NCBI GenBank assembly: GCA_041662125.1
Contig: JBAZTA010000003.1
Location: forward strand, 264,962-328,961
Length of the DNA: 64,000 nt
Source of the DNA: Candidatus Omnitrophota bacterium
Lineage (GTDB): Bacteria > Omnitrophota > Gorgyraeia > Gygaellales > Profunditerraquicolaceae
Direction: 5' to 3'
Numbering within the stretch: the first letter of the stretch is position 1; each line of letters starts with the position of its first letter. Made by a program: the position numbers and the translations under genes. Of the stretch, positions 1,601-62,198 are shown piece by piece. The notes beneath the pieces are model-generated. The model was not told where the DNA came from. It saw only the letters and a program-made list of their open reading frames with translations, and ran no database searches.

Positions 1601-1648
1601 ATTTTAGCTCCTGAATGCATTATATCGAGTAACGACGAAACCGACAAG

Positions 1649-2779: not shown

Positions 2780-4275
2780 CGTACTTTTGACCAATCCTTC
2801 CTGCTGATAAAATTAAATATCTTTTTAAGGAAATACCCTGGATCTTTCAATAATTTTGATATAACCACCGCAATAAAACCAAGAGGATCCTTTTTTAGGA
2901 AAGTAAGTAAAAGAAACCGCTGTCCCTCAGCAAGGATTTTCTTGAGTTTTGTGCCATCCATCACTTCAGTTGAAATAGAGAAACTCCTGATATAAAGGTC
3001 ATCAAGTGAAAAATCAGGCCGCAGGAACCCTTTCTCTTTACATAATTTAAAAAGTTCCGAACCGGGATATGGAGTGGCTATCGATATATGCGGAGTAAAA
3101 ACCCCCAGGCTCGCGGAAAAACGAAAACTTTCCCATATTTGCTCTTGCGTTTCGTACGGCATGCCAACGACCAGAAAAATCCCGATACGCAGCCCTATCT
3201 TTTTCGCATACCTTACCAAGGGCGAGACTTTTTTAAGGTCAAGCGGCTTTTTGATGATCGTATTAAGGACTTTCTGGCTCCCGGACTCAAGAGCGAAATT
3301 AAGAGAATGGCAACCGCTTTGCTTCATTTTATTAATAAGGCTTTCATTTAATGTCCACGCGGCGATTCCATTAGGAGTATCCCAAACCAATCCCAATTTA
3401 TCCCTGCACATCCCCTCAAAAATATTATATGCGCGAGAAGGATCCAGGGTAAGGTTATCATCTTCAAACATAATTTCTTCTATCCCGTATTGAGTTTTCA
3501 AAAAGCTCAGTTCACGCAAAACATTTTCCGGTGAACGCGTGCGAAAAGCGCGCCCCCATACCGCGTAGGCAGAACAGAAAGTGCACTGCGCGGGGCATCC
3601 GCGCGAAGTTATAACAGGCGCGAATCTTTTTTTTCGCCTTTCACCGTGAGAAGACTTTAATCCAAAATACTTCTCCATGCTCAAAAGATGCCAGGCAGGA
3701 AACGGCAGAGCGTCAAGGTCTTCAATGAACCTCTTTTTCGGTATTACCTTGACAACACCCTTATCTTTATATCCGACGCCATCAAGCGTTGAAAAATCTT
3801 GATTTCCCTCAATACATGCTATCAAATCAAGGAGAGTTCTCTCACCTTCCCCCAGAACGACATAATCAACAAACTCATCTGCAAGGACCAACTCGGGCAT
3901 CACCGTAGGATGAGCGCCTCCCGCAAGGGTTATGGTTGCCTGGTCAATTTTCTTAGCAATTTCATAAATTTTATGCGCGCATTTTCGCTGTTTCGTAAAT
4001 AAATTGTTAACGCCAACAATATCCGGCTTGTAGTCGCTGGTAATTGCTTCTATCGTCTCAAAAGGCAAACCGATACGGATTGAGTCTTCCGACACACTGA
4101 CTCTGGTATCCCAACCTTCAATCAAAGCATCAATTATCTTTACTTCAATCCCTTTTTTTTCAAGAACCGCGGCTAAATACCCGAGTCCTAAAGGCGGCAT
4201 AGGATTAATATCGATCCTGTCTTTAAAGGTAATCGCAGGAGGATTAAATAAAAGGACTTTTTTGATCTTTTTCAT
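2776..4275 (-). CDS. B12-binding-domain radical SAM enzyme (class B, putative methyltransferase/other radical tailoring)
   Basis: 499 aa. N-terminal cobalamin-binding-like domain followed by radical SAM CxxxCxxC 'CPAQCTFC'. Confidence 0.75.
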   Translation of the reverse strand: MKKIKKVLLFNPPAITFKDRIDINPMPPLGLGYLAAVLEKKGIEVKIIDALIEGWDTRVSVSEDSIRIGLPFETIEAITSDYKPDIVGVNNLFTKQRKCAHKIYEIAKKIDQATITLAGGAHPTVMPELVLADEFVDYVVLGEGERTLLDLIACIEGNQDFSTLDGVGYKDKGVVKVIPKKRFIEDLDALPFPAWHLLSMEKYFGLKSSHGERRKKRFAPVITSRGCPAQCTFCSAYAVWGRAFRTRSPENVLRELSFLKTQYGIEEIMFEDDNLTLDPSRAYNIFEGMCRDKLGLVWDTPNGIAAWTLNESLINKMKQSGCHSLNFALESGSQKVLNTIIKKPLDLKKVSPLVRYAKKIGLRIGIFLVVGMPYETQEQIWESFRFSASLGVFTPHISIATPYPGSELFKLCKEKGFLRPDFSLDDLYIRSFSISTEVMDGTKLKKILAEGQRFLLLTFLKKDPLGFIAVVISKLLKDPGYFLKKIFNFISRKDWSKVR

Positions 4276-5486
4276 AACAAATTATAGTATTTTTCAGCCA
4301 TAACCCCTGCTTGAAACATATGATTCAACCGATCATAACCCTTTTCAACCATAGTATTGGATAGAGTAGCATTATTCAATATTTGTTTCATGGCGCAAGC
4401 TAATTGTTGAGAATTATTTGGTTCAACAATTAACCCTGCATCACCTAATACTTCAGGAATACCGCCAACGTCAGAAGCGATTACAGGTTTTTTATAAAGC
4501 ATTGCTTCAAGTAAAACCATTCCAAAACTCTCATAATTAATTGAGGGAAAAACAAACACATCAAAGCATTCAATGTATTCCCAGGCAGCATCGAGATACC
4601 CGGTTAAAAAAACCTTTTTTTCAAGGCGAAGCTCTTGGATAAGTTTATTTAAAGTAATTGCGTGCGCAAAAGCATCACTTCCTATAATAACTAGTTTTGA
4701 GTGCGGAAATTCATCCTGAATTTGATAAAACGCCCTGATAAGATATTCGTGGCCTTTTCTTTCCTCATAATCGCCAATGCAACCAATAATTTTGCCTGCT
4801 CCATCTAATTTCAGCGTATTCCTTTTATCTCTCAGGGATAAATGAGCGGTTCTCTCAGTAATAATGCCATTATATATATACGTTATTTTCTGGGCAGTCA
4901 GAAACCTTGTTTCTTTAAGCTGCTTGGCGCAAGAAGAAGAAACACAAATAATTTGCGAACAAGAATGATCAATCCACGCATCTATAATTCGGTCAAAAAT
5001 TCTAAAAGGCCACTGAGAGATCGTAGCGTTGTTGTGGATAACAAGAAATATCTTTTTTATCCTCGCCAATCGAGCGGCAACCACAAAAGAAAGACTTAAT
5101 TCAGCTGCCGGATAGCCGCCATTATGAGAAAATACAACTTCGAATTTATCTTTTTTTAATTTAAAATAGAATATGATTATTGAATATAAAAAAATAGGAA
5201 ATTTTAATACACTCGCTATTTTTCGCAGCTTCCAGCAAAATTGAGAGAAGCCAGAGGTTGCCCCTCTCTTAAGACTTGTGAAATTAATATCGCTCGTAGC
5301 CAATACATGAATTTGTTTTACCTTCAGGCCCCCGGCATCATAGACATACTTTCCTTTATGGCCTTTATTAAGCCACACCTCACAATGATCATTTTTAGCC
5401 GGCCATGCCTTAATCAAATTTACTAAAACGGTATCTACTCCTCCTATTTCCCGGCTCGAATAAAAGAAAACGATTTTTTTAGCCAT
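4272..5486 (-). CDS. Glycosyltransferase family 4 (GT-B, retaining)
   Basis: 404 aa. C-terminal EX7E-type motif region 'FPSINYESFGMVLLEAMLYKKPVIASDVGGIPEVL'. Confidence 0.75.
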   Translation of the reverse strand: MAKKIVFFYSSREIGGVDTVLVNLIKAWPAKNDHCEVWLNKGHKGKYVYDAGGLKVKQIHVLATSDINFTSLKRGATSGFSQFCWKLRKIASVLKFPIFLYSIIIFYFKLKKDKFEVVFSHNGGYPAAELSLSFVVAARLARIKKIFLVIHNNATISQWPFRIFDRIIDAWIDHSCSQIICVSSSCAKQLKETRFLTAQKITYIYNGIITERTAHLSLRDKRNTLKLDGAGKIIGCIGDYEERKGHEYLIRAFYQIQDEFPHSKLVIIGSDAFAHAITLNKLIQELRLEKKVFLTGYLDAAWEYIECFDVFVFPSINYESFGMVLLEAMLYKKPVIASDVGGIPEVLGDAGLIVEPNNSQQLACAMKQILNNATLSNTMVEKGYDRLNHMFQAGVMAEKYYNLL

Positions 5487-5498
5487 CTATGCTTTATA

Positions 5499-6383
5499 TT
5501 AACAAACCAAACATTGCCAACCCCATTGCTTAAATTCTGGAACGCTAAAAGAAGATTCTAAAGAAGCAAGATAATTAGGCGCTCCCGGATTGAGCGCTTC
5601 AAGTGTTTTAAGAGGGATCAATTTCACGCCTTTTATTCCCCAGGATATATAGAAAATAGTATACCCGAATCCCTCTAAATACTTATGCACAGAATCTCCG
5701 GCTCCAACAAGATTTTCATAGACGATATTTTTAATCATCTTTTGCCGTAACAAATTCTGCGCACCTTCCAACACTCTTAACTCATGCCCCTCGACATCAA
5801 TCTTTACCAATGATACGCTCTGCTTTGAAACAATTTCATCTAAGGTAGTTGTCATGGCAGGAATCCCTTGAGATTGATCATCTGAAAGATACGATGTACC
5901 CCAACTTTTCAAAATGTCGTCTTCATTAAAAGAAACAAGGCGTTGTTCTTTTCTTGCATTACTGAGCGCAGCATTAAATATCGTTATTTTTCCTGCTTTT
6001 TTGTTTTGCTTGAACAATTGAACATTATCCTTCAATACACTAAATACAAATTGATGCGGCTCAAAAGCTAAAACAGTCCCGGTTGTCCCACAGCGGCTTG
6101 CCATAATACTCGTCATATACCCGACATTGGCTCCTACATCAATAACCAGATCTCCCGGTTTGATAAGCCTCCACAACACTTCGCTCACCTCTAATTCAAA
6201 AATACACCGGTACCATAACGATAGCCCAACCGCTTCCCGGACATCAACCTTAATTTCCATGCCCCAGGGTAAAGCAAGTTTTCGCATTCTTGCTTTTTTA
6301 CAGAATGTTCCGCGCAACAATCGAATAAACAGTTGTTGCGGCCTGAATACGTAATAAGGTTGAAAAGGATTTCGAATTTTCAT
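5499..6383 (-). CDS. FkbM-family SAM-dependent methyltransferase
   Basis: 294 aa. 'LVIDVGANVGYMTSIMA' is characteristic of FkbM-family MTases. Confidence 0.7.
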   Translation of the reverse strand: MKIRNPFQPYYVFRPQQLFIRLLRGTFCKKARMRKLALPWGMEIKVDVREAVGLSLWYRCIFELEVSEVLWRLIKPGDLVIDVGANVGYMTSIMASRCGTTGTVLAFEPHQFVFSVLKDNVQLFKQNKKAGKITIFNAALSNARKEQRLVSFNEDDILKSWGTSYLSDDQSQGIPAMTTTLDEIVSKQSVSLVKIDVEGHELRVLEGAQNLLRQKMIKNIVYENLVGAGDSVHKYLEGFGYTIFYISWGIKGVKLIPLKTLEALNPGAPNYLASLESSFSVPEFKQWGWQCLVC

Positions 6384-6407
6384 ATAAAAGCAATGTAAGT
6401 ATTGCGG

Positions 6408-7148
6408 TTATTTTTTCAACATAGCTTGCCTTACTCCATACCGTATATCAAGCAACAGCTCCCAGGCATAACGCAAGAATACAGTTACAAGCCTTTTAAG
6501 CTTTTGCGCGATAACCTGTTTTCTTGACATCTTATCAATTGGGTTTTGCGGCTCATCAGAAGTTTGCTGTTGAGGAATTACAAATTTACCGATGCTTTTC
6601 AACTTCTTCGCAACGATCCAGATCACAATATCCTCTCCGCGGGCAGGATCCTTAATAATATTTCCATAAACCGTACTGAACTTTAAATATATGACCTGAA
6701 AATTATTTGATTCCAGCGCACCTCGTATCGCTACAGGATTTAACACATGCAATCCGTGTCCGAAAAATCCGTTTACCGCTGTAACCAACACGTAAGCGCC
6801 GCCAACTTTTACCATACGCAAGCAATTCTCAATGCACTGCCTTGTGTCAAAAACATGTTCTAAACATCCTATATCGAAAACGACATTATATTTCTCATTT
6901 TCTTCTCGGGGAACAGGCAAATTCATATCATATTTTAAATCTGCCCTCTCATCAAAATAATCCAATGTCGAAATCTCAGATACTCCTTTTGCAACCAGCA
7001 ACTCCTTAACATCTTTGTATTCAAATTCATTGGAAGCACCACTTGCGTCAAAAACCTGATACCCAAACATCAAAAAAGGCCCTTTTAAAATTCCCGGGAT
7101 ACTGAATATTTCGTTACAAATAGGCATAAGAGCTTTTGATAACGCCAC
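6408..7148 (-). CDS. Hypothetical protein, methyltransferase-like with degenerate motif I
   Basis: 246 aa. 'VVFDIGCLEHVFD' resembles class-I MTase motif III, but no clear GxGxG. GTG start preceded by strong SD 'AGGAGGAG'. Confidence 0.35.
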   Translation of the reverse strand: MALSKALMPICNEIFSIPGILKGPFLMFGYQVFDASGASNEFEYKDVKELLVAKGVSEISTLDYFDERADLKYDMNLPVPREENEKYNVVFDIGCLEHVFDTRQCIENCLRMVKVGGAYVLVTAVNGFFGHGLHVLNPVAIRGALESNNFQVIYLKFSTVYGNIIKDPARGEDIVIWIVAKKLKSIGKFVIPQQQTSDEPQNPIDKMSRKQVIAQKLKRLVTVFLRYAWELLLDIRYGVRQAMLKK

Positions 7149-7217
7149 AGTTCTCCTCCTGAAATTATTCCAAAACTTTTGTTTCTTAACTCGAGAACGA
7201 TCCCTTGTAAAAACGGC

Positions 7218-8150
7218 TTAATTTTTTTTCATAATAAGTGAAAATAACGCCCCCCCGTAAGGAGAATTGTTTTTAATTTTCCTTGAGAAAAACTTATTAA
7301 TTCCGTTACTACTCTCATTGACCCAAGCTCCTAAATGTTTATAGGTATTTACCGAAATTATCTTAAAATCAGGGAAAAATCTTTCATGCAATTTAAAAGG
7401 GTCAAAACCTTCACCCTTTTCATCAGGATCATGAATATCGACAATTGCGTTTATATCCTTAATAGTCAAATCTTGCCCAACAAGCTTCTTTTCCTTAACA
7501 GCCCAATAAACCTTCTGATTAAAATCCTTTCCTGGCCCAAGCCGTTTACGGAACATCCCCAAAAATATAAGGATATTGCGCGCGATTCTCTTTAATACCA
7601 TCCTTACTTTCACTAAATTTTGGTAAACAAACAAAATAAACGACCTGTTTTGAGAATGTAGTTTATTTCTCTCATGCATTATTATAAAAAGACCTCCCTT
7701 AGTAACATGTTTCCCCAGCCCTGACAAAACTTGCGGGTAATCAGGGATATGATGCAAAACTGAATTCATCGTAATACAATCAACTTTTAAGTCCATCTTG
7801 GAAATTTCAAGCGCGTCGGCTTTTATAAATTCTTTCTTAATCTTATTCAGCGATGCTAAATGTTCTTGTGTAATCTTAAGCATTTTCTCAGATAGATCCG
7901 TACAAATTATCTTGTCGTTTTCTTTCAAATACCCGGATACAAGCATAGGAACAAATCCGGTTCCGGTGCCGATATCAAGGATAGTAAGTTGCTTATCACT
8001 TTTTAAAAAGGTTTGCCCGATCTGTTCCCAGGCGGATTTTTCATCTACATATATTTCCGGATGCCTTTGCACATAATATTGGGCTTCCAGATCATGATAG
8101 ATCTCGTTAACTTCCTTAACTTGAGCGTCGTCTAAAATTATTTTAGCCAT
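7218..8150 (-). CDS. Class I SAM-dependent methyltransferase
   Basis: 310 aa. Motif I 'ILDIGTGTGFVPMLVSGYL'. Confidence 0.75.
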   Translation of the reverse strand: MAKIILDDAQVKEVNEIYHDLEAQYYVQRHPEIYVDEKSAWEQIGQTFLKSDKQLTILDIGTGTGFVPMLVSGYLKENDKIICTDLSEKMLKITQEHLASLNKIKKEFIKADALEISKMDLKVDCITMNSVLHHIPDYPQVLSGLGKHVTKGGLFIIMHERNKLHSQNRSFILFVYQNLVKVRMVLKRIARNILIFLGMFRKRLGPGKDFNQKVYWAVKEKKLVGQDLTIKDINAIVDIHDPDEKGEGFDPFKLHERFFPDFKIISVNTYKHLGAWVNESSNGINKFFSRKIKNNSPYGGALFSLIMKKN

Positions 8151-8181
8151 TATTCAACCCACTAAATCCACGTATCCCGTT

Positions 8182-9318
8182 TTAAGATTCTCTTAATGCC
8201 TGGACAACAATATCTTTTGAAAAACGATTTTCGCTTTCTTTCGAAGTAAGACAACTATACTTATATTTATCATACAAAACCGCATTAACAGCAGGGACCT
8301 GCAATGTTTTAATGCATTCTTCTGAGTCAATATTATACGCCTTTGACCCTAGTGACTTTGAAAGAAATTCCAGGGTCCTGAAGTTGGCCTTTCTCTTAAC
8401 CCGATATTCCTGAGTATAAACAAATATGATCGGTTTACGGTAAAGCACGGCGTATGAAGTAGATGTACTTGACTGCGAAATAACAAATCGGGAATCTTTG
8501 ACCAACTCGCATGTCTTTCCTTCATAACTTAAGCGACCCTTAAAAATATTTTTTTCATACGTAATGCCGGGATGCGCAGCAATGACAACCTTTACTTTAA
8601 AGCTTTTTTCGATAACACTAAAAAAATTATTCAATGATTCATAAAACTTTATAAAATCAAGTTGCTGCATGTTCAAAAGCGACACATCATCATTATACAC
8701 AGGCCCTTCATCTAAAAAAACACAATATTCACCGGCAACGACCCGTTGCGACATATTTTTAGTCAGTTGATAATAATCATAATCCTGATAATTAATATTG
8801 ACTACATGGAAATGATCCTTGAAAGCATCGCCGGTCAAGCGGCCGGCAACAAACACAAGGTCATATTTTCTTATTAAACCTGCCCTTTTGCATACATTCG
8901 CGATGAGGTTTAAAAAAGTTTGGAAAAAAACTGCCGGCCTGATCTTATCGATTATTTTCGTAGTCAAATCCTCTCTCGCATACGCCACCCAGGGAAAATA
9001 AACAGTCTTACACCTTAAACGCGTCATAAGTAAATAGAGAGATATGACCTGCCATCCAAAGTATACCTGCAAAACAAATACGGTACTTTTTAAATCCTCG
9101 TTCTTTAAACGCACTTTCAACTCGTCAAAAGAGTTAATTTCTTTGACATATTCCCGGGATAACGTGTTCTTAAAATGACGGCCTTTAAAATAAATACCTT
9201 TTAAATCCCAATACTCAACAGGTATGCCCGCATCAAGCACATCCTGAATTAACAGGTATCTTTCGATCTGGGGTGTTAAAGCAAAGATTGTGATATAAAT
9301 AACCTTTTTATGAGCCAT
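8182..9318 (-). CDS. Hypothetical GT-B-like transferase (TagF/KpsS/sialyltransferase-like pattern)
   Basis: 378 aa, no canonical motifs. C-terminal half 'KVKVVIAAHPGITYEK...FVISQSSTSTSYAVLYRKPIIFV' resembles the TagF/Capsule_synth family pattern. Confidence 0.3.
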   Translation of the reverse strand: MAHKKVIYITIFALTPQIERYLLIQDVLDAGIPVEYWDLKGIYFKGRHFKNTLSREYVKEINSFDELKVRLKNEDLKSTVFVLQVYFGWQVISLYLLMTRLRCKTVYFPWVAYAREDLTTKIIDKIRPAVFFQTFLNLIANVCKRAGLIRKYDLVFVAGRLTGDAFKDHFHVVNINYQDYDYYQLTKNMSQRVVAGEYCVFLDEGPVYNDDVSLLNMQQLDFIKFYESLNNFFSVIEKSFKVKVVIAAHPGITYEKNIFKGRLSYEGKTCELVKDSRFVISQSSTSTSYAVLYRKPIIFVYTQEYRVKRKANFRTLEFLSKSLGSKAYNIDSEECIKTLQVPAVNAVLYDKYKYSCLTSKESENRFSKDIVVQALRES

Positions 9319-9348
9319 TATGATTATGTGTTTTTTTCATAAAGAACC

Positions 9349-10737
9349 CTACGTTTGCCTAAAACCTCGAAAATCCCTGTTCTTTTTTAAATAGAGATTT
9401 TCAGCCTCTAAGATCATAGCCTTGCATTTTTTACTATAATAGTTTTTCAATAACACCGAATTAGCTTCAAGCAAACAACGATGAAAGTCATCAGCAGAAA
9501 GTTCGGTAAAATTTACGGTTAAAAGATCAGAATTAATATGTTTGTTTTCATAAAAATCCTCGCAATCTCTCAATAAACCTTTTCGGATCGCATAGTAATA
9601 CAGCGGAGACCCGGGATACGGAGTTACCGGCCGGATCGTGCGCATCTGTGAACAATCGTCATATTTCAGCAAGAATTCAACCCCTTTAAACAATGTTTCT
9701 TTGTTTTCTCCGATGTTTCCGAAAATAATGTTATAGCCTGGGCTTATTCCGGCTTTCAAAGTCGCTTCTATCCCCTTGATGATCTGTTGCGTCGTTAATG
9801 ATTTATTCATATTTTTGAGTATCCGGTTATCCATGGCTTCTATGCCATAATTAATAAAAACGCAACCGGATCTTTTCATCAGTTTCAAAACTTCTGGCAG
9901 GGCAAAATTGAGCCTGCCGCAACAAGACCATTTAATATGTAATTTGTTTTTAAGAAAATCGTTGCACAGGCTGGTTATTCGTGCGATCGAAGTCATCAAA
10001 AGTTCGTCAGTGAAAACAATATACTGTATACCGTAATCTTTCTTTAACAGCTTTATTTCTTCAATAATGCCGGCACTGGAGCGGATGCGCAGGCCTTCAT
10101 CCATCCGATAACAAAAATTACATTTAAAATTACACCCTCTGCCGGAAAGAACCGGCATCGCAAAATCACTATTCAATGCGTGAGGCATTCTTAAAAGCCT
10201 ATAATGGTCAATGGGAAACAGATTAAAAGCAGGAAATGGTATGCTGTCAATATTTTCTATAAGGGCACGCCTGGGGTTAATCACAACTTTCTGACCTTCC
10301 CTAAACGCTATTCCCAAAACATTCGAAAACGATGTTTTGTTCTTCAAAGCATTCAGCAATTCAATAACAGTGATCTCGCCTTCCCCCATCACCACAGCAT
10401 CCGCTTGTGTTTTTAAAAGAAAATATTCCGGTTCAGGGGTCGGCCCATGGCCGCCGATAACAAAAAAAGGCCGTTTACGAAGCTCGCGTATTACACGCGA
10501 TATCTTTAACAACTTTCTATATTGATAATACCCCGCGATCACACTAACCCCAACAACATCAAAATGATTCTTTTTCAAATATTCCTTAAGATGCTCTTCC
10601 GGATAATGGGATATGTCCTGATTATAAATTTCTACCTCATGCCCGTTTTGAGATAAAACCGCAGCAATATATGCAAGTCCTTGCGGGAAGAAATGAATAT
10701 AGGCTCCGTTATCATAAATAACCAATAAAATTTTCAT
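9349..10737 (-). CDS. B12-binding-domain radical SAM enzyme (class B)
   Basis: 462 aa. N-terminal B12-binding-like domain and radical SAM 'GCNFKCNFCY'. Paralogous architecture to 2776..4275. Confidence 0.75.
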   Translation of the reverse strand: MKILLVIYDNGAYIHFFPQGLAYIAAVLSQNGHEVEIYNQDISHYPEEHLKEYLKKNHFDVVGVSVIAGYYQYRKLLKISRVIRELRKRPFFVIGGHGPTPEPEYFLLKTQADAVVMGEGEITVIELLNALKNKTSFSNVLGIAFREGQKVVINPRRALIENIDSIPFPAFNLFPIDHYRLLRMPHALNSDFAMPVLSGRGCNFKCNFCYRMDEGLRIRSSAGIIEEIKLLKKDYGIQYIVFTDELLMTSIARITSLCNDFLKNKLHIKWSCCGRLNFALPEVLKLMKRSGCVFINYGIEAMDNRILKNMNKSLTTQQIIKGIEATLKAGISPGYNIIFGNIGENKETLFKGVEFLLKYDDCSQMRTIRPVTPYPGSPLYYYAIRKGLLRDCEDFYENKHINSDLLTVNFTELSADDFHRCLLEANSVLLKNYYSKKCKAMILEAENLYLKKNRDFRGFRQT

Positions 10738-10747
10738 AAAATATCCC

Positions 10748-12259
10748 TTAATGTATCGCAGGTTGCTTTAGAAATAATCTTTTTATATCCTGCCTATCTA
10801 ATTCACTCAAACTGGCATAATATAAACTTAACGAAACGCAATAGATAACAGACATCTCAATAAGTACTGCAAATATGTTCTGAGGGTACCAATACTTCAG
10901 CATAACGGCAGAAGCTAAATACACAAACACATATATCAGCAGATTACCGCGAATTGACCTTTTAAAGTACTCAACAAACTTAATTTTCAGATTTATGAGT
11001 GATATTCGCAGAGTAAAAGGGAAACCTATCAATATCATTGAAACTGTCAAGCCGGCTGCAGGCGCGATGATCCCCAATCTTTTTATAAAAGTAAGGGTCA
11101 AAACTATATTTGCGGCTACAACTCCCAATTGAATAAAAAGAGGTTTTTTCACAACTCCCTTAGCAGAAAGCATACTGCTTGCTAACTCCAAGGTCCCGTT
11201 AAAAAGCCAGAATACTATAATGATCTTTGCGGGCAGGATACTTTCGCGAAAAGTATCCCCCATCCAGTATATAATAAACGGCTCGGCAAAGACAAAGAGC
11301 ATAAGAATGACCGGTAAAAAGGCCGCAGACATATACTTGGTCCCTTTAAAGACAAGCTGCCGTTGTAATTCATGTTCTCCCCTTCCTTCCATTTCAGACG
11401 CTATTGTCCATGGCGGCGCACCGATCGTAGAATTAATTACCCTTAAGTACGATTGAATATTATAGGCAACCGCATAGGTAGATACCGCAGAAAGCGAGAT
11501 ATAATATCCAATAATGAGGTTATGGATTTGAAATAAAAAACTACTAAGCAATGCGCTGACAAAACAAAAAAAACTGAAATTAAATATGAATTTGAAAGTT
11601 TTAAGTTCTGTATAGGGGAAAGTTATCCTAAAATCATACCTTTTCTTGACAATACAATACAAAACCGTACTCCCCAATATGGTTAAAACCTGATTCACGA
11701 TGAATAATTGAACTATCCCGCACCCTGACATCAAGAGGGCATACGTACATATACCATTTAAAATTTGAACGGATATATTAACCGAAGCATCTAAATCCCA
11801 TAAATTTAATCCCTGGATGAAACCGCGGAATGTATTGATCGGCCAAACCAGCAATGCTGACAAAGCTGCTACTATAAAGAGGTCTCGAGCAACAGCAATA
11901 TTCGCAGGCAGAACTTTAAAGAATTTGACAAAGAATACTGAGAAAAAAAACAATAATAACGATACCGTGATGCCTATCAGCACATAAAAGGTGAACGATG
12001 CATTAACGATCTTATTGACACTCTCGTTGTCCTTTTTTCCGTTATACTCGGAAACATACTTAGTCAATGCCGACATTACGCCAAGATCTAAAAGCCCGAA
12101 ATATCCGGTAACAGTCATGGCAACCAAGTAAACTCCGTAAATTTCTTTTCCGACATATTTAACTATAAAAGGAAAAAGAAAGAAAGAGATCGCAACGCTG
12201 GCGATTCGGTTTGCCGCTAAAAAACTGATATTTTTTCCGATGAGGCGTATTTTCGACAT
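10748..12259 (-). CDS. Polysaccharide biosynthesis protein / Wzx-like oligosaccharide flippase (MOP superfamily)
   Basis: 503 aa, about 12-14 predicted TM helices, typical Wzx/MATE-like topology. No soluble domains. Confidence 0.6.
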   Translation of the reverse strand: MSKIRLIGKNISFLAANRIASVAISFFLFPFIVKYVGKEIYGVYLVAMTVTGYFGLLDLGVMSALTKYVSEYNGKKDNESVNKIVNASFTFYVLIGITVSLLLFFFSVFFVKFFKVLPANIAVARDLFIVAALSALLVWPINTFRGFIQGLNLWDLDASVNISVQILNGICTYALLMSGCGIVQLFIVNQVLTILGSTVLYCIVKKRYDFRITFPYTELKTFKFIFNFSFFCFVSALLSSFLFQIHNLIIGYYISLSAVSTYAVAYNIQSYLRVINSTIGAPPWTIASEMEGRGEHELQRQLVFKGTKYMSAAFLPVILMLFVFAEPFIIYWMGDTFRESILPAKIIIVFWLFNGTLELASSMLSAKGVVKKPLFIQLGVVAANIVLTLTFIKRLGIIAPAAGLTVSMILIGFPFTLRISLINLKIKFVEYFKRSIRGNLLIYVFVYLASAVMLKYWYPQNIFAVLIEMSVIYCVSLSLYYASLSELDRQDIKRLFLKQPAIH

Positions 12260-12282: not shown

Positions 12283-13302
12283 TTATTGGTCAGCTCGATT
12301 AGCAGCTTTATTAGACAGAGAAATATTATGAGCGCATATCCGACACATAGGACTGAGATAATAATTCCCTGACTTGTGCTGACCGCGAAGCTCTTGTATC
12401 TTAGGGCAATTCCAGAGATCTTTCAAACTCGCAGTATTAACGTTGCCTATAGTAATATTGCCTGCTACATCAGTGGCACAAACACAAACCGTGCCATCGG
12501 TCATGACAACCAAACGTTGAAAAGGCTGTTTACAGCAATACTCATGGAGCGGAACATTGAACGGATTGTTTTTCTGAATTGACCCGAATTCCTGGCAGTA
12601 AGAAATAGTAATTTCATCTACCCTTTTATGCCAATACTCATAGAACTCTCTTGTCTCATGCCTGTTTATGCCGGATTCAGTATACTGCAATCGAATGAAC
12701 GGTTTTCTTGATTTTCCCCGTATATCGATCAAGTTTTTAATATTCTCAATGACCGCATCATAATCGGCGCCAATTCTGATCTTTTCATACGTCTGCTTGG
12801 TAAATCCATCGATTGAAATAATAAGTTGATCCAGCTTTGCTTCTACAATTTCACGGCCTATATTTTGATTCATCAGCGTCGCGTTCGTTAACGAGGTAAC
12901 TTCCAAAATACCTTTAGATTTCGCATAACGCACCATATCCATAAAGTTTTTATTCAGCATAGGCTCACCCCGCCAGCTTAATTTCAAAGCGGGGATCCTA
13001 TATTTTGCGCATTCATCGGCAATTTTTTTAAAAGTATCCATCGCCATAAGGGGAACTTTCGTAGTCTTTGCTACGGGGAGCGTTTCATCACTCTGAAAAC
13101 ACATAGAACACCGCAGGTTGCAAACATTGGAAGCTTCTGCGATGACATCCAAAGGGTATTTTCCAACTTTAAATTTACCCGGGTAAGCGTTAAAACGATA
13201 ACGATAGATATAAAATTGAGGATTGAATCCCCCTTTTTTGTAGAGGTTAGCTACCTTTGTAAAGAAACCTGCTTTAATCTTCCAGTTTTTCTTAAGTTTC
13301 AT
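12283..13302 (-). CDS. Radical SAM / SPASM-domain protein (paralog A)
   Basis: 339 aa. 'CNLRCSMCFQ' radical SAM motif. C-terminal cysteine-rich SPASM-like region 'CCKQPFQRLVVMTDGTVCVCATD...CRICAHN'. Confidence 0.75.
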   Translation of the reverse strand: MKLKKNWKIKAGFFTKVANLYKKGGFNPQFYIYRYRFNAYPGKFKVGKYPLDVIAEASNVCNLRCSMCFQSDETLPVAKTTKVPLMAMDTFKKIADECAKYRIPALKLSWRGEPMLNKNFMDMVRYAKSKGILEVTSLTNATLMNQNIGREIVEAKLDQLIISIDGFTKQTYEKIRIGADYDAVIENIKNLIDIRGKSRKPFIRLQYTESGINRHETREFYEYWHKRVDEITISYCQEFGSIQKNNPFNVPLHEYCCKQPFQRLVVMTDGTVCVCATDVAGNITIGNVNTASLKDLWNCPKIQELRGQHKSGNYYLSPMCRICAHNISLSNKAANRADQ

Positions 13303-14300
13303 TGCGTATCTCTTTTTGAATCAAAAGAATCGGGACAATCAGCGCATAGATGCATTTTTTTGAAACCTCCCTGCCGGTGAAGCTTTCTTACCTTCTGCAT
13401 TATTTCTCCCGTCCAGATATCGGGAACCGTTTGAGTCAAAACATCGCCGATAACATACCCCTTTTTCATATCCCGAGGACAAAGCGTTGCAGTACCATCA
13501 CTCAATATGGTCAGCCGCCGCCATAATTCCGCGCAACAAAAATTATCATCCTGTTTATAATTTTCCCTATGATAAAGCCTTTCTTCTCCCGTTTTACAGT
13601 CAAGATAACGTAAGATCGCTATACGGTTTAGTTTACCCGCCCAATAAGCTATAAACTTGTTTTTCTCGGATGGGTCATCTTCATCCATTTCAATAAAATT
13701 CGCCTTAATATGCAGCCTTGACTTAGGGTTCTGGTTACGCTGCCTGATCAAATCTTCAACCGCTTGCATGACCTTTTCAAATCTTGCCCCGATTCGTATT
13801 TTTTCGTATCTTTCTTTATCGGCGCTATCCAGAGAAATAATAAGCCTGTCAAGGCCGGATTCGATAAGTTTACGGTTAAAATCATGCCCCAGGAGAGTGC
13901 CATTGGTATGCATGTTCACATCAATAACTCCCTTTTCTTTCGCATATCTGATTACTTCAAAAAGTTGCGGGTACAGGGTCGGTTCTCCTAACCCGGTCAA
14001 ATTAAAAGCGCATAATCCATGCGTGCACGCTTGGTCTAATATTTTTTTTACCAAATTAAGATCCATATATCCTTTACCGGGGATATATGCCTGCCGGGGA
14101 CACATAGGGCATTTTAAGTTACAGACGTCAACCGCAAAAAGGTCTATCTGCAACGGAACCTTATCAACGATCCCGGCTTGCGGATACTGGTCCCATTTCC
14201 TTCGGTATTCGATCCACTTTTTATCATGGAATACCAAACCCGTTTTTTTGTCCGTGCCTAAAACCTCCGGAGAAATACTTTTTACCTTAACCCGTATCAT
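13299..14300 (-). CDS. Radical SAM / SPASM-domain protein (paralog B)
   Basis: 333 aa. 'CNLKCPMCPR'. C-terminal 'CCAELWRRLTILSDGTATLCPRD...CADCPD'. Shares 'YEKIRIGA', 'RYAK.KGV', 'DRLIISLD' with paralog A. ATGA overlap with paralog A. Confidence 0.75.
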   Translation of the reverse strand: MIRVKVKSISPEVLGTDKKTGLVFHDKKWIEYRRKWDQYPQAGIVDKVPLQIDLFAVDVCNLKCPMCPRQAYIPGKGYMDLNLVKKILDQACTHGLCAFNLTGLGEPTLYPQLFEVIRYAKEKGVIDVNMHTNGTLLGHDFNRKLIESGLDRLIISLDSADKERYEKIRIGARFEKVMQAVEDLIRQRNQNPKSRLHIKANFIEMDEDDPSEKNKFIAYWAGKLNRIAILRYLDCKTGEERLYHRENYKQDDNFCCAELWRRLTILSDGTATLCPRDMKKGYVIGDVLTQTVPDIWTGEIMQKVRKLHRQGGFKKMHLCADCPDSFDSKRDTQ

Positions 14301-14312
14301 GTATTAAACACC

Positions 14313-15374
14313 TCAAGGATTTAACGGCGAGCCTTCAATCATGTTCCACCCTAATGGTGTCCCTTTTTTTATATCCTTACGCGCTTTTTTTCCCAGGACC
14401 CTTTCCCAATAACGGGGATGTAAACCGTGCCCGGGCCTTATAGAGCGGATATTATCTTTCGAAAATTTTTCACCTTTAAAGATATCTTTCACTACAAAAA
14501 CAGACCTGCGAAAGACTCGATTTTCTTTTTGTTTTTCCGTGAGTTCATATGAAACCTTTCCTAAAGCTTTTTCTGCGGTTCGTATATCAGAGACCATTGT
14601 CCTGAATTCTGCCGGTTCAGTCGAGAATGAGCAGTCGGGGCCGGGATCTTTTCGGGAAAGCGTAAGATGCTTCTCTATGATACATGCACCCAGGGCTATT
14701 GAGGCTACGGCAACAGCACTGCCTAAGGAGTGGTCGGAAAGCCCAACAGGAAAGCCGTATACTTTTGAAAGATCAGGAATCGTATTCAAATTCATTTCTT
14801 TAGATGGTGCAGGATACGCGCTGGTACACTTAAGCAAAGCTATTTTCCTGTTTCCCTCATTAAGGACAGTTTGAACTGCCTCATCTATTTCTGGCCTAGA
14901 GGCCATGCCGGTTGAGATGATGATAGGCTTTCCGGTTGCAGCGACCTTCTTTAAAAAAGGAATATCTACCAGCTCAAATGAAGCGACCTTATATGCGGGC
15001 ACTTTCATTTTTTCCAAATAATCAACCGATGTAAAATCAAAAGGGGTTGAGAAAAAGTCAAGCCCAAGGCTGTCACAGGCCTTCTTTAATCGGGGATGCC
15101 ATTGCCAGGGCGTAAACGCTTCTTGATAAAGCCGGTAAAGATTTTTTCCCGCCCAAACTGTCCCTTTAATCTTAAAATATTTGTTTTCACAATCGATAGT
15201 CATAGTATCCGGAGTATATGTCTGGATCTTTACCGCATCCGCGCCCGAATCGGCAGCGGCCTTTATAATACGGAGGGCTTTATTAAAACTCATAGCATGA
15301 TTCGCTGACATCTCAGCAATGATATATACCGGCTTCCCTGGGCCTATAGTTTTCTTATTGATCTTTATGTTCAT
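14313..15374 (-). CDS. pseI: Pseudaminic acid synthase (NeuB/PseI family nonulosonate synthase)
   Basis: 'IIAEMSANHAMSFNKALRIIKAAADSGADAVKIQTY' NeuB-family TIM barrel. C-terminal SAF-like domain. Start trimmed to 'MNIKINKK' with an upstream SD-like AAAGG. Confidence 0.8.
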   Translation of the reverse strand: MNIKINKKTIGPGKPVYIIAEMSANHAMSFNKALRIIKAAADSGADAVKIQTYTPDTMTIDCENKYFKIKGTVWAGKNLYRLYQEAFTPWQWHPRLKKACDSLGLDFFSTPFDFTSVDYLEKMKVPAYKVASFELVDIPFLKKVAATGKPIIISTGMASRPEIDEAVQTVLNEGNRKIALLKCTSAYPAPSKEMNLNTIPDLSKVYGFPVGLSDHSLGSAVAVASIALGACIIEKHLTLSRKDPGPDCSFSTEPAEFRTMVSDIRTAEKALGKVSYELTEKQKENRVFRRSVFVVKDIFKGEKFSKDNIRSIRPGHGLHPRYWERVLGKKARKDIKKGTPLGWNMIEGSPLNP

Positions 15375-15390
15375 GAATTTTAACCTTTCA

Positions 15391-16089
15391 TCACCCAAAA
15401 ATACGCAGAGCCATAAATGCTTCGGCAAATAAATAGCCTGATTCTGAACCTCTAACCTTCGCCAGTGCCCTTAAAACTTCAGGCGACCGAGGATGAGGAT
15501 CCAGGCGCGCTTCACCTTTGTAAGTTTGCATTGAATTGATCTTTGCAGTAAGATCTGCTTCGGAAACCTCAACATAGACGTTTGGTTCCCATTGCGCTGG
15601 ACGCAGGTACCCGGTGCTGCTGGGGACTTCACCGCATAAAACAGAGATATGCGCATCGGCCGCCGGCCGCGCAGCAACAACGACCGCATTATGGCAATAT
15701 TGATGGTCAATATTCGTACAATAGCGATGATGGGTCAAGATCAAGTCGGGTTTTACGCGGGCAATAATTGCCTCCATCCAATGGACTATTTCTAACAATG
15801 AACTTTTATCCATTTCATTATCAGCGAATTTCCCAAGATAAATATGTTCCTTTGAAACACCTAAGACAGCACAAGCCTTCTGGCAATCTTTTCTTAATGC
15901 GGAGAGTGCGGCTTTCCTTGATTTTAATGATGCTGCGTTTCGACGGCCATGAATGCCTGTCGCGGGGATCGCGACATGAACCTCTGCGCCAAGACGGGTC
16001 AGTTTTTTGATAGTCGCACCTGCCGCTAATGTCTCATCGTCGGGATGCGCGAAAAGTGTCAAAATGGTAGAATAGTCCTTCAGGATCAT
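15391..16089 (-). CDS. PIG-L/LmbE-family N-acetylglucosaminyl deacetylase
   Basis: 232 aa. 'FAHPDDE' zinc-binding motif of the LmbE/PIG-L family. Confidence 0.75.
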   Translation of the reverse strand: MILKDYSTILTLFAHPDDETLAAGATIKKLTRLGAEVHVAIPATGIHGRRNAASLKSRKAALSALRKDCQKACAVLGVSKEHIYLGKFADNEMDKSSLLEIVHWMEAIIARVKPDLILTHHRYCTNIDHQYCHNAVVVAARPAADAHISVLCGEVPSSTGYLRPAQWEPNVYVEVSEADLTAKINSMQTYKGEARLDPHPRSPEVLRALAKVRGSESGYLFAEAFMALRIFG

Positions 16090-16787
16090 TTCCCTCTCCT
16101 TGATTTAGATTGAGTGATTTTAGCTCGGGCATAAAGCGCGCCTTCGCGCATTACAGGGTGAGAAAATTCATACCGTAAACCACCCTGTTCAATAAATGCC
16201 TTTGGATATTCGTCTGCGTCCAGCATGCGGATATGATCGTAGATCTTTCCCAAGGTTTTATGCTTGAGCGCTATCTTACTTTGATCAGGCCGGCGCCGTA
16301 AAAACATTACCGCTTTACCCTGCTGAGCAACTGGCTTTGGTTCCTGCATGATTATTTCCTTGATCATTTTCGCGATGATCTTTGAAGAACGGATATAAAT
16401 ATCCTGGGCCCTTCCTCGCAATGAAAGCTGCCGTTTAAAATAAACCGGCCCGGCATCTAAGACGCCGGTCATTCTTAATGCCGATATTTTAGTGTTTGTA
16501 AACCCGCGGACGATCAAATTCTGTAGAGGGCTGCCCCCCCGCCCAAACGGGACATCTGTCTCGTGAAAACAAACACATTCATAAGAATTCACGATCGAAG
16601 ATGGCACTCGCTTGCTCCAGTGGGGGAAAAAAATATAACGCGGTTTAAAGCGTTTTATTCTTTCAAGTGTTAAATCTTTTGCAGCGGTAATGAGATGCCA
16701 ATTACCTGGATATTTGCTAATACTATTCCTGTAAGCTTTAATATTCCACGGACGTATTGTTGCAATAATATATACTTTTTTACTCAT
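16086..16787 (-). CDS. Formyltransferase-family protein (putative sugar N-formyltransferase)
   Basis: 233 aa. 'HETDVPFGRGGSPLQN' matches the H-x-S/T-x-L-P-x-x-R-G formyl transferase motif. Lacks the Fmt C-terminal tRNA-binding domain. Confidence 0.65.
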   Translation of the reverse strand: MSKKVYIIATIRPWNIKAYRNSISKYPGNWHLITAAKDLTLERIKRFKPRYIFFPHWSKRVPSSIVNSYECVCFHETDVPFGRGGSPLQNLIVRGFTNTKISALRMTGVLDAGPVYFKRQLSLRGRAQDIYIRSSKIIAKMIKEIIMQEPKPVAQQGKAVMFLRRRPDQSKIALKHKTLGKIYDHIRMLDADEYPKAFIEQGGLRYEFSHPVMREGALYARAKITQSKSRRGK

Positions 16788-16799
16788 GGCATCATATTT

Positions 16800-18559: not shown

Positions 18560-18568
18560 TTTATGGAC

Positions 18569-20248: not shown

Positions 20249-20263
20249 AATAAAGAATAATGC

Positions 20264-21580: not shown

Positions 21581-21597
21581 AATTAACTCCGGGTATT

Positions 21598-22635: not shown

Positions 22636-22667
22636 ACCTCAAATTTTAAATTAAAATTATTAAATAC

Positions 22668-23825: not shown

Positions 23826-23826
23826 A

Positions 23827-26362: not shown

Positions 26363-26372
26363 AACACCTTTT

Positions 26373-32231: not shown

Positions 32232-32259
32232 AGGTATTTTATCGCAGCAAGACTGCGCT

Positions 32260-37165: not shown

Positions 37166-37169
37166 GCTT

Positions 37170-49510: not shown

Positions 49511-49540
49511 ATAAGCCCCTCTTTTGGTAAAGAAATACTC

Positions 49541-50359: not shown

Positions 50360-50380
50360 AAACGGTTTTTAGTTTAACTG

Positions 50381-51379: not shown

Positions 51380-51390
51380 GCTCTCTCCTC

Positions 51391-52455: not shown

Positions 52456-52470
52456 ATATATTCCTCTTGG

Positions 52471-53436: not shown

Positions 53437-53446
53437 GAGTGATTAA

Positions 53447-54454: not shown

Positions 54455-54460
54455 TGGCTT

Positions 54461-55039: not shown

Positions 55040-55044
55040 ATGAT

Positions 55045-62193: not shown

Positions 62194-62198
62194 AAGTT

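Follow-up and report, generated by a model that had tools for sequence, protein, structure and literature searches.

A conserved B12-binding-domain radical SAM protein family associated with nonulosonic acid biosynthesis genes

What would a radical SAM enzyme with a B12-binding domain do among the genes of a surface glycan, and on which sugar would it act? The question is raised by a gene in a stretch of 64,000 nucleotides from a Candidatus Omnitrophota genome (the window). The original prediction was a class B radical SAM enzyme that performs C-methylation, or similar chemistry, on a sugar moiety. The candidates considered below are the nonulosonic acids of the pseudaminic (Pse) and legionaminic (Leg) type, which are found on flagella, S-layers, capsules and O-antigens and influence phage recognition as well as motility and immune interactions. 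To our knowledge, all known modifications of Pse and Leg are polar chemistry on nitrogen or oxygen atoms.

Protein, predicted fold and existing labels

The open reading frame starts with ATG and encodes a protein of 462 amino acids (ORF listing and translation). The gene and the features of its product are as follows:

9349..10737, minus strand: B12-binding-domain radical SAM gene (ORF, Pfam PF02310 and PF04055, homologues, AF2 model, Foldseek)
10357..10689, minus strand: N-terminal Rossmann-type B12-binding domain, residues 17-127 (Pfam 68.4 bits, invariant columns, alignment to cobalamin-bound enzymes)
10111..10134, minus strand: CxxxCxxC [4Fe-4S] cluster motif C202 NFK C206 NF C209 (translation CNFKCNFC)
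9688..10146, minus strand: radical SAM core, residues 198-350, predicted partial TIM barrel (Pfam, secondary structure of the model)

The predicted combination of an N-terminal B12-binding domain with a radical SAM core was confirmed. PF02310 matches residues 17-127 (E 6.3e-19, 68.4 bits against a cut-off of 32.1), PF04055 matches residues 198-350 (E 2.2e-23, 83.7 bits against a gathering threshold of 29.5), and the quoted radical SAM motif is present in the translation (GRGCNFKCNFCY). C202, C206 and C209 are invariant in alignments of 26 and of 45 homologues. The B12-binding domain carries the invariant motifs FPxG (17-20), GG(H) (95-97) and GEGE (118-121). Residues at the ends of its Rossmann strands are invariant across phyla in the same alignments, as expected for a retained cofactor site, at which cobalamin would bind. 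Of the further cysteines, C258, C272 and C292 are invariant and C392 is nearly so; C272 lies where strand beta-3 of the radical SAM core ends. An auxiliary Fe-S cluster on these residues is judged unlikely, because they are widely spaced along the chain and the model puts them on separate secondary-structure elements.

The AF2 model (pLDDT 88, pTM 0.87) contains five strand-helix units in the N-terminal domain and an alternating strand-helix core at residues 193-370. Its top Foldseek matches are TsrM (1e-21), MgmA (6e-21), OxsB (3e-20), CysS and TokK, together with AprD4. The predicted fold matches that of cobalamin-dependent radical SAM enzymes, and the class B assignment holds at the level of sequence and fold (Pfam, AF2, Foldseek). 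The B12-binding fold is present in the model: the N-terminal domain can be aligned, by way of the GG and GEGE motifs, with MgmA, OxsB, TokK, CysS and TsrM, all of them cobalamin-bound, but not with AprD4. TsrM, MgmA/QCMT, TokK, CysS and OxsB share the overall fold (Foldseek E 1e-21 to 1e-15, TM 0.61-0.69) at 15-20% identity. They act on tryptophan, a protein glutamine, carbapenams, a pantetheinylated intermediate or a nucleotide, and most of them have extra C-terminal domains that are absent from the 462-aa protein.

AprD4 (PDB 6FD2) is the radical SAM 1,2-diol dehydratase of apramycin biosynthesis and acts on an amino sugar. It is the best sequence match in the PDB (E 1.2e-13 with the single sequence, 1.5e-19 with a profile) and has the highest TM-score to the model (0.73/0.74). 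The Cys and Arg of the WxCxxR segment on strand beta-3 are also found in AprD4, the Cys being C272; the alignment covers the radical SAM core and the C-terminal part only. AprD4 binds no cobalamin, and AprD4 and ArsL illustrate that a Rossmann-like N-terminal domain is no guarantee of cobalamin binding (PMC12931638).

Against NCBIfam the protein gave 25 matches, none of them near its cut-off. The top score was that of the model for ladderane-type lipid biosynthesis B12 radical SAM proteins (TIGR04072, 146.4 bits against 360, split over two stretches), followed by BchE (TIGR02026, 139.3 bits against an equivalog cut-off of 481.35). Lower scores were obtained for HpnJ (121 bits against 578), the B12_rSAM_oligo model TIGR04295 (86 against 400), the AprD4-family diol dehydratase model NF033070 (67.6 against an equivalog cut-off of 500), and YgiQ (TIGR03904, 25.2 against 462.35; PF08497, 16.5 against 25). 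The labels BchE, HpnJ, PhpK, BzaD, AprD4, ladderane and TIGR04295 were rejected, as all remain under the NCBIfam cut-offs. Since no curated cut-off is reached, the sequence does not place the protein among known methylases either. Several homologues carry names from the JGI pipeline as anaerobic Mg-protoporphyrin IX monomethyl ester cyclase (BchE) or YgiQ/UPF0313, and BchE ranks second among the NCBIfam matches. That these names describe the true function can be practically dismissed: the family cut-offs refute the label, methanogens and other organisms that are not phototrophic are among the hosts, and the gene neighborhood is invariably one of glycan biosynthesis. Current annotations of family members ('BchE', 'YgiQ', 'radical SAM protein') are wrong or uninformative.

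The family, the window locus and related loci

The protein belongs to a family that is nearly always 462 aa long and 55-85% identical over some 17 bacterial phyla and two methanogen lineages. Membership is defined here by about 55% or more identity to other members over the full length, a size of about 462 aa, and a nonulosonic acid synthase and/or CMP-sugar cytidylyltransferase gene within 10 kb; the protein and gene of the window show all of these properties. The protein is identical (100%) to one from a Candidatus Omnitrophota MAG, 85% and 84% identical to the homologues P0002 and P0003, and 54-82% identical to those of 80 genome loci. Complete genomes with the gene include CP070780.1, NZ_CP138202.1, OY762430.1 and OY764022.1. 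With clustering at 50% the family shrinks to about two representatives, which score 651-653 bits, against 467 bits for the next full-length relative. By sequence it is a tight orthologous, very strongly conserved and distinct clade, more conserved than the core pathway enzymes encoded next to it. No public name was found for it. A literature search on radical SAM combined with nonulosonic acid, legionaminic, pseudaminic or flagellin glycosylation retrieved no paper on this family, none that places a radical SAM enzyme in nonulosonic acid biosynthesis, and no product or substrate for any family member. The radical SAM genes described for Campylobacter fetus (phase-variable, SPASM-type) and for Plesiomonas (a heme radical SAM gene, HutW) are not of this family.

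Upstream of the gene, the following genes are located in the window:

10748..12259, minus strand: Wzx/MOP-family flippase, directly upstream with a 10-bp gap (Polysacc_synt 2.1e-21, MatE 3.2e-15)
12283..14300, minus strand: two tandem radical SAM/SPASM genes, 12283-13302 and 13299-14300 (PF04055 and PF13186)
14313..15428, minus strand: pseudaminic acid synthase PseI, NeuB family (TIGR03586, 492.4 bits against 340.25; PF03102 NeuB)
15391..19342, minus strand: nonulosonic acid tailoring/activation block, consisting of the next five genes
15391..16089, minus strand: PIG-L deacetylase
16086..16787, minus strand: Formyl_trans_C_2 protein
16800..17519, minus strand: WbqC-like protein
17516..18559, minus strand: PseG-like protein (PseG 124 bits against 153.55, under cut-off)
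18569..19342, minus strand: CMP-sugar cytidylyltransferase
19346..24828, minus strand: aldo-keto reductase, class III aminotransferase, formyltransferase, PseC and PseB (profile matches)
22668..23840, minus strand: PseC (484.1 against 423.5)
23827..24828, minus strand: PseB (504.9 against 407.75)

As judged from PseB, PseC and PseI, which score above their equivalog cut-offs, the window encodes a pseudaminic-acid pathway. The start of PseI lies 3.6 kb and the cytidylyltransferase 7.8 kb upstream of the radical SAM gene. The flippase adjoins the gene as had been stated, and holds the same position in close relatives. The tandem SPASM genes, which the original prediction did not mention, overlap by 4 bp, are placed between the Pse synthase and the flippase and reach no NCBIfam cut-off; the same pair precedes the homologous gene in L004, L083, L084 and the P0003 locus.

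Downstream of the gene, the window contains:

8182..9318, minus strand: 378-aa protein, directly downstream with a 30-bp gap (no Pfam or NCBIfam match)
470..8150, minus strand: downstream syntenic block, consisting of the next seven genes
7218..8150, minus strand: methyltransferase
6408..7148, minus strand: methyltransferase
5499..6383, minus strand: FkbM-type methyltransferase
4272..5486, minus strand: GT4 glycosyltransferase
2776..4275, minus strand: second B12-binding radical SAM gene (product 28% identical to the 462-aa protein)
1649..2794, minus strand: DegT aminotransferase
470..1600, minus strand: SDR

The 378-aa protein has no long hydrophobic stretches and is kept at the same position in close relatives; that it is a glycosyltransferase is a guess. 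The downstream block is syntenic in L084 and the P0003 locus, and the whole block of the window is syntenic in relatives whose homologue is 84-85% identical. The gaps of 10 bp and 30 bp on the two sides of the gene correspond to an operon layout. A scan for promoters and terminators around the gene gave no enrichment, and no intergenic terminator-like site adjoins it. No cobalamin riboswitch, other RNA or B12 gene was found within the 64-kb window.

The link to nonulosonic acid genes extends through the family. Of the related loci, 45 extend for at least 8 kb to either side of the homologue. Among these, a NeuB-type synthase or CMP-sugar synthetase is encoded within 10 kb in 39, and at least four of seven Leg-pathway gene families occur in 32. 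Neither NeuB nor a cytidylyltransferase lies within 10 kb in the other six (L001, L042, L043, L052, L069, L075). The cytidylyltransferase is directly upstream of the homologue in 50 of 83 loci, at a median distance of -10 bp. Most related loci are legionaminic-acid operons, and several belong to flagellin glycosylation islands. In six such islands of Bacillota (L002, L038, L046, L047, L064, L071) the homologue is the only gene beyond the flagellins, a Maf-type transferase and the Leg core; cultured carriers of these minimal islands are Desulfoscipio geothermicus DSM 3669 (L038) and Wukongibacter baidiensis DY30321 (L046). The nonulosonic acid core is constant between loci while other glycan genes vary. 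A member of the sister clade (P0129, 43% identical) is also encoded in a nonulosonic acid locus. Another sister-clade member, P0125, is on a contig of just 1.7 kb. The tie of the family to Leg/Pse biosynthesis genes is well supported, and with it the part of the original prediction that named a sugar.

Other genes recur less regularly. A HisH/HisF-like pair and a 404-aa protein are present in 16-19 related loci, and SPASM genes in 20 of 82. Two B12-type radical SAM enzymes in one glycan locus had been considered unusual. This view was not upheld: at least one further gene of this type occurs in 19 of the 82 related loci, some of which hold three more.

Proposed function and alternatives

The reading preferred here, held at about even confidence, is that the 462-aa protein is a class B radical SAM tailoring enzyme for a Pse/Leg-type nonulosonic acid or its nucleotide-sugar precursor, and most likely a C-methyltransferase. 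The substrate would be a 5,7-diamino-3,5,7,9-tetradeoxy-nonulosonic acid (of the Pse type in the window, of the Leg type in most relatives) or a nucleotide-sugar precursor of it, tailored before the sugar enters a Wzx-exported surface glycan. Reductive cleavage of SAM by the [4Fe-4S] cluster on C202/C206/C209 would produce a 5'-deoxyadenosyl radical, and this radical would attack the sugar or its N-acyl group and remove a hydrogen atom from an unactivated sp3 carbon. The radical left on the substrate would then be methylated by methylcobalamin bound in the N-terminal domain, and another SAM would remethylate cob(I)alamin. These steps are the standard class B mechanism. As one highly conserved enzyme occurs in both Pse and Leg contexts, its target site is likely common to both; candidate shared sites are the C9 methyl, the C3 methylene and the N-acetyl methyl.

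Methylation is consistent with the record of the class: most characterized B12 radical SAM enzymes are methyltransferases, including GenK, GenD1, Fms7 and MoeK5, which carry out cobalamin-dependent C-methylation of sugar carbons in gentamicin, fortimicin and moenomycin (PMC12931638). The latter four have the same two-domain architecture, and the sp3 carbons that they methylate, in amino sugars or uronic acids of glycan or antibiotic pathways, are unactivated; they are thereby a precedent for the proposed chemistry. Their substrates are pseudo-oligosaccharides of actinomycete secondary metabolism, in contrast to the CMP- or NDP-linked nonulosonic intermediates of cell-surface glycans proposed here, and the family is a separate clade, far more conserved and widespread, that is likened to them by architecture rather than by direct sequence comparison. 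Fom3, the class B methylase of the fosfomycin pathway, has a true substrate with a CMP handle, cytidylyl-2-hydroxyethylphosphonate. A CMP-linked substrate is likewise conceivable for the 462-aa protein, since its gene most often directly follows that of the CMP-sugar cytidylyltransferase; this adjacency is no more than suggestive. Fom3 acts on a phosphonate and not a sugar, and the likeness is one of class, not of sequence membership. In its proposed role, diversification of Pse/Leg at the nucleotide-sugar stage, the protein resembles the Pse/Leg tailoring enzymes of Campylobacter (PseA/PtmG amidotransferase, PtmH methyltransferase, acyl- and O-methyltransferases), and canonical tailoring genes of this kind are often found in the same operons as the family.

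Several observations count against methylation. Close to the gene there are already five SAM-dependent methyltransferases, and two TylC3-type sugar C-methyltransferases are encoded farther away; the window holds no cobalamin gene or riboswitch. We know of no sequence signature that tells methylases from non-methylases in class B. It is possible, with a probability well short of even, that the protein acts in the same nonulosonic acid pathway by epimerization, dehydration/deoxygenation, oxidation or carbon-skeleton rearrangement, with or without cobalamin. AprD4, OxsB, BchE and HpnJ are non-methylase precedents in the same structural class, the top NCBIfam scores (ladderane-type model, BchE, HpnJ) belong to non-methylases, and AprD4, a dehydratase without cobalamin, leads the lists of PDB sequence matches and TM-scores. 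The invariant C272, shared with AprD4, could donate a hydrogen atom, and radical SAM epimerases use a donor of this kind. Natural stereoisomers of these sugars exist, namely 8-epi-Leg, 4-epi-Leg and acinetaminic acid; however, the known epimers of the Leg/Pse type are made by NAD-dependent enzymes. On chemical reasoning, the finished sugar offers no obvious site for chemistry of the AprD4 type, as neither Leg5Ac7Ac nor Pse5Ac7Ac contains a vicinal diol. AprD4 moreover fits the radical SAM core only, whereas the extremely conserved N-terminal domain aligns with true cobalamin binders.

It appears unlikely that the protein modifies something else, such as a different sugar from this very large glycan locus, a precursor of an N-acyl side chain or the lipid carrier, and that the link to nonulosonic acids merely reflects shared surface-glycan islands. 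In the window three genes lie between the gene and PseI, its neighbors encode methyltransferases, a GT4 glycosyltransferase and a flippase, and the 64 kb encode many other sugar pathways; the six loci without NeuB or cytidylyltransferase point the same way. The association is nevertheless specific to nonulosonic acid genes. It is kept in the minimal flagellin islands, where only Leg genes, a Maf transferase and flagellins are present, and it holds over very different glycan contexts, over phyla and in the 43%-identical sister clade, while the other glycan genes change by locus. Tailoring of a Pse/Leg-type sugar remains the preferred reading, with C-methylation its most likely chemistry.

A possible carbon-skeleton extension and wider occurrence

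A further, rather improbable proposal is that the family extends or branches the carbon skeleton of Pse/Leg, for example by methylation of the C9 methyl at the CMP-sugar stage, which would yield ten-carbon 'higher ulosonic acids'. In Magnetospirillum gryphiswaldense, CMP-activated C10 ulosonic acids for which no enzyme has been assigned were reported from mass spectrometry (bioRxiv 10.64898/2026.04.20.719630). No family member named Magnetospirillum was present among the best 120 of about 4,000 matches for each of two alphaproteobacterial queries, and a link of the family to these acids is not supported. A C10 acid could arise just as simply by condensation of PEP with a seven-carbon sugar. 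Sugar variants of Kuenenia stuttgartiensis that are 14 Da apart were considered and set aside, as formyl versus acetyl groups, or O-methylation, fit them equally well.

If the carbon-skeleton proposal were true, surface sugars of anaerobes and archaea would owe a widespread layer of their diversity, unseen until now, to radical C-C bond formation. The family is embedded in the Pse/Leg pathways of about 17 bacterial phyla and of methanogens. For enzymologists the protein would be a compact class B radical SAM enzyme whose substrate is small and obtainable by established routes. The minimal flagellin islands of the two cultured carriers open the question to direct test. In Rhodospirillaceae bacterium LM-1, a magnetotactic spirillum related to Magnetospirillum, a family gene is located in a nonulosonic acid/Maf locus.

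Target gene and locus

The target gene lies at 9349-10737 on the minus strand, has an ATG start and encodes 462 aa. Pfam places a B12-binding domain (PF02310) at residues 17-127 (E 6.3e-19; 68.4 bits vs a gathering score of 32.1) and a Radical_SAM domain (PF04055) at residues 198-350 (E 2.2e-23; 83.7 bits vs 29.5). The radical SAM motif is GRGCNFKCNFCY, with cysteines C202, C206 and C209 encoded at window positions 10111-10134. The original prediction had described this pair of domains and the motif, and had proposed the same two profiles as a check. Both matched, with scores far over threshold that exclude chance; the observation is wholly confirmed. The Wzx flippase said to adjoin the gene was also found.

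All window ORFs of good size with family matches share the minus strand; almost all of them are genes of glycan biosynthesis.

Genes around the target, in transcription order (all minus strand; bit scores vs NCBIfam cut-offs)
Upstream: PseB, 504.9 vs 407.75
Next: PseC, 484.1 vs 423.5
Next, in this order: formyltransferase, class III aminotransferase, aldo-keto reductase, CMP-sugar cytidylyltransferase
Next: PseG-like protein, 124, under the cut-off of 153.55
Next, in this order: WbqC-like protein, Formyl_trans_C_2 protein, PIG-L deacetylase
Next: PseI, 492.4 vs 340.25
12283-14300: two radical SAM/SPASM genes in tandem (12283-13302 and 13299-14300, 4-bp overlap), between PseI and the flippase
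10748-12259: MOP/Wzx-type flippase, 10 bp upstream of the target
9349-10737: target
8182-9318: 378-aa protein, directly downstream of the target
Next: three methyltransferases, GT4 glycosyltransferase
2776-4275: second B12-domain radical SAM gene (499 aa), 28% identical to the target
Next: DegT aminotransferase, then SDR

The window is a pseudaminic acid (Pse) context. The gaps flanking the target are short (10 and 30 bp), neither contains a terminator-like site, and promoter-like sites are not enriched around the gene; the target is therefore probably co-transcribed with its neighbors. Synteny with the two closest relatives (85% and 84% identical) extends over the entire block. The G+C content is 0.37-0.38 over 4001-12000, the segment with the target, flippase, methyltransferases and GT4, vs roughly 0.40-0.45 in the remaining window, which is compatible with a horizontally acquired sub-cluster. 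No cobalamin (B12) genes or riboswitches were found within the 64-kb window.

Family and predicted structure

An identical protein is present as an entry from a Candidatus Omnitrophota MAG. Homologues number in the thousands; among the matches listed nearly all are exactly 462 aa long and 60-85% identical. Scanning a single genome for each species gave 143 relatives, of which the best 80 are 54-82% identical to the target and belong to Omnitrophota, Planctomycetota (including anammox lineages), Nitrospirota, Desulfobacterota, Bacillota, Chloroflexota, Campylobacterota, Pseudomonadota, Elusimicrobiota, Actinomycetota, Lentisphaerota, Parcubacteria, Margulisbacteria, Schekmanbacteria, Firestonebacteria and Balneolia, and to two methanogen lineages of the Archaea, Methanolobus and Methanomicrobiaceae. 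Two of the organisms that carry the gene, Desulfoscipio geothermicus DSM 3669 and Wukongibacter baidiensis DY30321, are in culture. Clustering a library at 50% identity leaves about two representatives of the family (651-653 bits); full-length relatives come next at 467 bits (47% identity), ahead of a generic B12 radical SAM background near 250 bits.

No NCBIfam model came near its own cut-off for the target. The scores were 146 vs 360 for the ladderane-type model, 121 vs 578 for HpnJ, 68 vs 500 for AprD4 and 139 vs 481 for BchE. The labels 'BchE' and 'YgiQ' attached to the family by JGI are wrong, since no cut-off is approached, and the chance that the target is what these pipeline labels say is negligible.

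An AlphaFold2 model of the target built with 45 family sequences (mean pLDDT 88, pTM 0.87) consists of a five-stranded Rossmann-type N-domain, a partial TIM barrel and a helical C-terminal part. The B12-binding fold, the absence of which the original prediction had regarded as fatal, is present in this model. Foldseek matched it in the PDB to TsrM (E 1e-21), MgmA/QCMT (6e-21), OxsB (3e-20), AprD4 (5e-20, with the best TM-score, 0.73), CysS and TokK (both about 1e-16). In comparisons with the family profile, AprD4 matches only from position 196 to 397, over the radical SAM core and the C-terminal part, whereas cobalamin-bound enzymes match through the GG and GEGE motifs of the N-domain. As AprD4 and ArsL show, an N-domain of this kind can occur without cobalamin binding (PMC12931638). 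The strand-end residues of the target N-domain (Y8, D9, F17, P18, G20, Q40, D41, H44, G69, Y70, G96 and G118-E121) are invariant across phyla, which suggests that a cofactor site is retained. The invariant C272, at the end of strand beta-3, is aligned with a Cys of AprD4. Many Arg and Lys residues are invariant in the family and would suit an anionic substrate. Residues 456-462 (window 9352-9372) read F-R-G-F-R-Q-T/S and are almost invariant across phyla, with F456, R457, G458 and R460 at the extreme C-terminus invariant. They are the lowest-confidence part of the model (mean pLDDT about 50), and this tail may fold over the active site or touch the substrate.

Nonulosonic acid association and predicted function

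ORFs were called and clustered in 83 related loci, and recurrent clusters were annotated with Pfam; the 'Leg' names of neighbors come from Pfam domain composition and clustering, not from equivalog models. The recurrent neighbors make up the GDP-route legionaminic acid (Leg) pathway.

Recurrent neighbors of the target family (83 loci)
50 loci: cytidylyltransferase, LegF type, directly upstream on the same strand, median distance -10 bp
46 loci: LegB-type dehydratase
46 loci: DegT/LegC aminotransferase
44 loci: NeuB/LegI synthase
37 loci: CBS-nucleotidyltransferase, PtmE type
34 loci: hydrolysing 2-epimerase, LegG type
32 loci: PglD-type acetyltransferase, LegH type
21 loci: GFO/IDH/MocA oxidoreductase, PtmF type
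20 loci: short-chain dehydrogenase, PtmA type

In the subset of 45 loci that extend for at least 8 kb to either side, a synthase or cytidylyltransferase lies within 10 kb in 39, and four or more of the seven core gene families are present in 32. Only similarity of the radical SAM protein decided which loci were picked, and the enrichment therefore does not stem from selection; a nonulosonic acid locus is estimated to fill well below 1% of a genome. In Bacillota the gene sits within flagellin glycosylation islands (e.g. L038 of D. geothermicus, L046 of W. baidiensis, and loci L047, L064 and L071), where it is the only addition to flagellins, a Maf-type transferase and Leg core genes. The association extends to the magnetotactic spirillum Rhodospirillaceae bacterium LM-1 and to a 43%-identical sister-clade protein. 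Given the Pse context of the window and the Leg context of most relatives, one very conserved family serves both pathways.

The target is probably a tailoring enzyme of the nonulosonic acid pathway. The reading with the most support, at an even chance, is that it is, more precisely, a cobalamin-dependent radical C-methyltransferase; it would modify Pse/Leg-type sugars or their nucleotide-sugar precursors by cobalamin-dependent radical chemistry. Methyl transfer to carbon would be the most likely reaction: it is the majority function among B12-dependent radical SAM enzymes, and GenK, GenD1, Fms7 and MoeK5 are precedents on sugar carbons (PMC12931638). The site of attack could be the C9 methyl, the C3 methylene or an N-acetyl methyl. 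Pse and Leg differ in configuration at C5, C7 and C8, and a site common to both is more likely because the family works in both contexts. Other radical chemistry on the same pathway is a less likely reading, at about one chance in a few. Action on a different substrate within the glycan is less likely still; the window also encodes enzymes for other sugars, and the recurrent neighbors are those of nonulosonic acid synthesis. The substrate of Fom3 bears a CMP handle, and the frequent position of the family gene right behind a cytidylyltransferase gene gives, by gene order, a weak hint of a likeness.

Over the same locus pairs (related loci L004-L083) the target family has a median identity of 66-68%, vs 47% for NeuB, 45% for LegG, 38.5% for PtmE, 38% for LegF, 36% for LegC, 36% for LegH and 31% for LegB. 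In 94-100% of pairs the higher identity is that of the radical SAM protein. It is unexpected for a tailoring enzyme to outdo the core Leg enzymes, and this suggests that the family may be under very strong constraint (two cofactors, a small invariant substrate) or, alternatively, may be a cassette of recent and independent spread. The low G+C around the target would fit acquisition by transfer.

None of the B12-dependent radical SAM enzymes listed in a 2026 review acts on nonulosonic acids or cell-surface glycans (PMC12931638). Full-text searches combining radical SAM with nonulosonic, legionaminic or pseudaminic acid or flagellin glycosylation gave nothing relevant; within this literature the family and its nonulosonic acid link are undescribed. 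A known enzyme class is thus found in a pathway without reported radical chemistry. One unconfirmed lead concerns Magnetospirillum gryphiswaldense, which is reported to have CMP-activated ten-carbon ulosonic acids with no enzyme assigned (2026 preprint, bioRxiv 10.64898/2026.04.20.719630). Backbone C-methylation by the target family would explain them, as would a heptose-based condensation. With alphaproteobacterial family members as queries, no Magnetospirillum-named protein was among the best 120 of about 4,000 matches.

Other genes of the window and related loci

In the window, 12 kb of a single glycan locus contain four radical SAM genes. Loci of a member of the Thermodesulfovibrionales (L001), a member of the Vulcanimicrobiota (L003) and strain LM-1 (L085) each have three to four radical SAM genes of the B12 type in a span of 20 kb, and in several such loci two cytidylyltransferase genes flank them. 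In the LM-1 and sister-clade (P0129) loci a sulfotransferase gene is accompanied by genes for APS kinase or ATP sulfurylase, which points to glycans with sulfated nonulosonic acids.

Among curated models, the second B12 radical SAM protein scores best against Sden_1168, a family of B12 radical SAM P-methyltransferases (299.6 bits vs 575 for the cut-off); neither a PEP mutase nor any further phosphonate gene was seen within the window. In close relatives this gene stays ahead of the DegT aminotransferase and SDR. The SPASM pair reached no NCBIfam cut-off, the best being a tungsten-cofactor maturase model (103-111 bits vs 380). It also precedes the family gene in loci L004, L083 and L084 and in that of the 84%-identical relative; SPASM genes are present in 20 of 82 related loci.

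The 378-aa protein matches nothing in Pfam or NCBIfam, and it lacks long hydrophobic stretches, which excludes a Wzy polymerase. Its gene keeps its position in the 84-85%-identical relatives; a transferase for the modified nonulosonic acid is a guess.

Further genes of the window (all minus strand)
15391-16787 and 21598-22635: PIG-L deacetylase and two formyltransferase-like genes, interleaved with Pse genes
24917-26455, 31140-32309, 39503-40756 and 42616-45270: ORFs inside the glycan locus for proteins of 512, 389, 417 and 884 aa, no Pfam match at the thresholds used
35918-37216 and 57571-58821: two TylC3-type NDP-sugar C-methyltransferases (Methyltransf_14 and zinc-binding Methyltransf_13)
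Within 47028-56571 and 60364-62229: three-domain TPP enzyme, E1 alpha/beta pair, GmhA-like SIS protein, HldE-like kinase/nucleotidyltransferase fusion, carbamoyltransferase

A 2026 preprint on Ca. Kuenenia stuttgartiensis reports a similar deacetylase/formyltransferase arrangement and ties it to CMP-nonulosonic acids that bear a free amine and an N-formyl group, one of each; by analogy, the source organism may make a similar zwitterionic sugar. The two TylC3-type genes imply that the conventional, non-radical route to branched-chain sugars is in use in this organism as well. The genes within 47028-56571 and 60364-62229, in the far part of the locus, suggest that the same glycan or neighboring ones contain heptose, acyl-branched and carbamoylated sugars.
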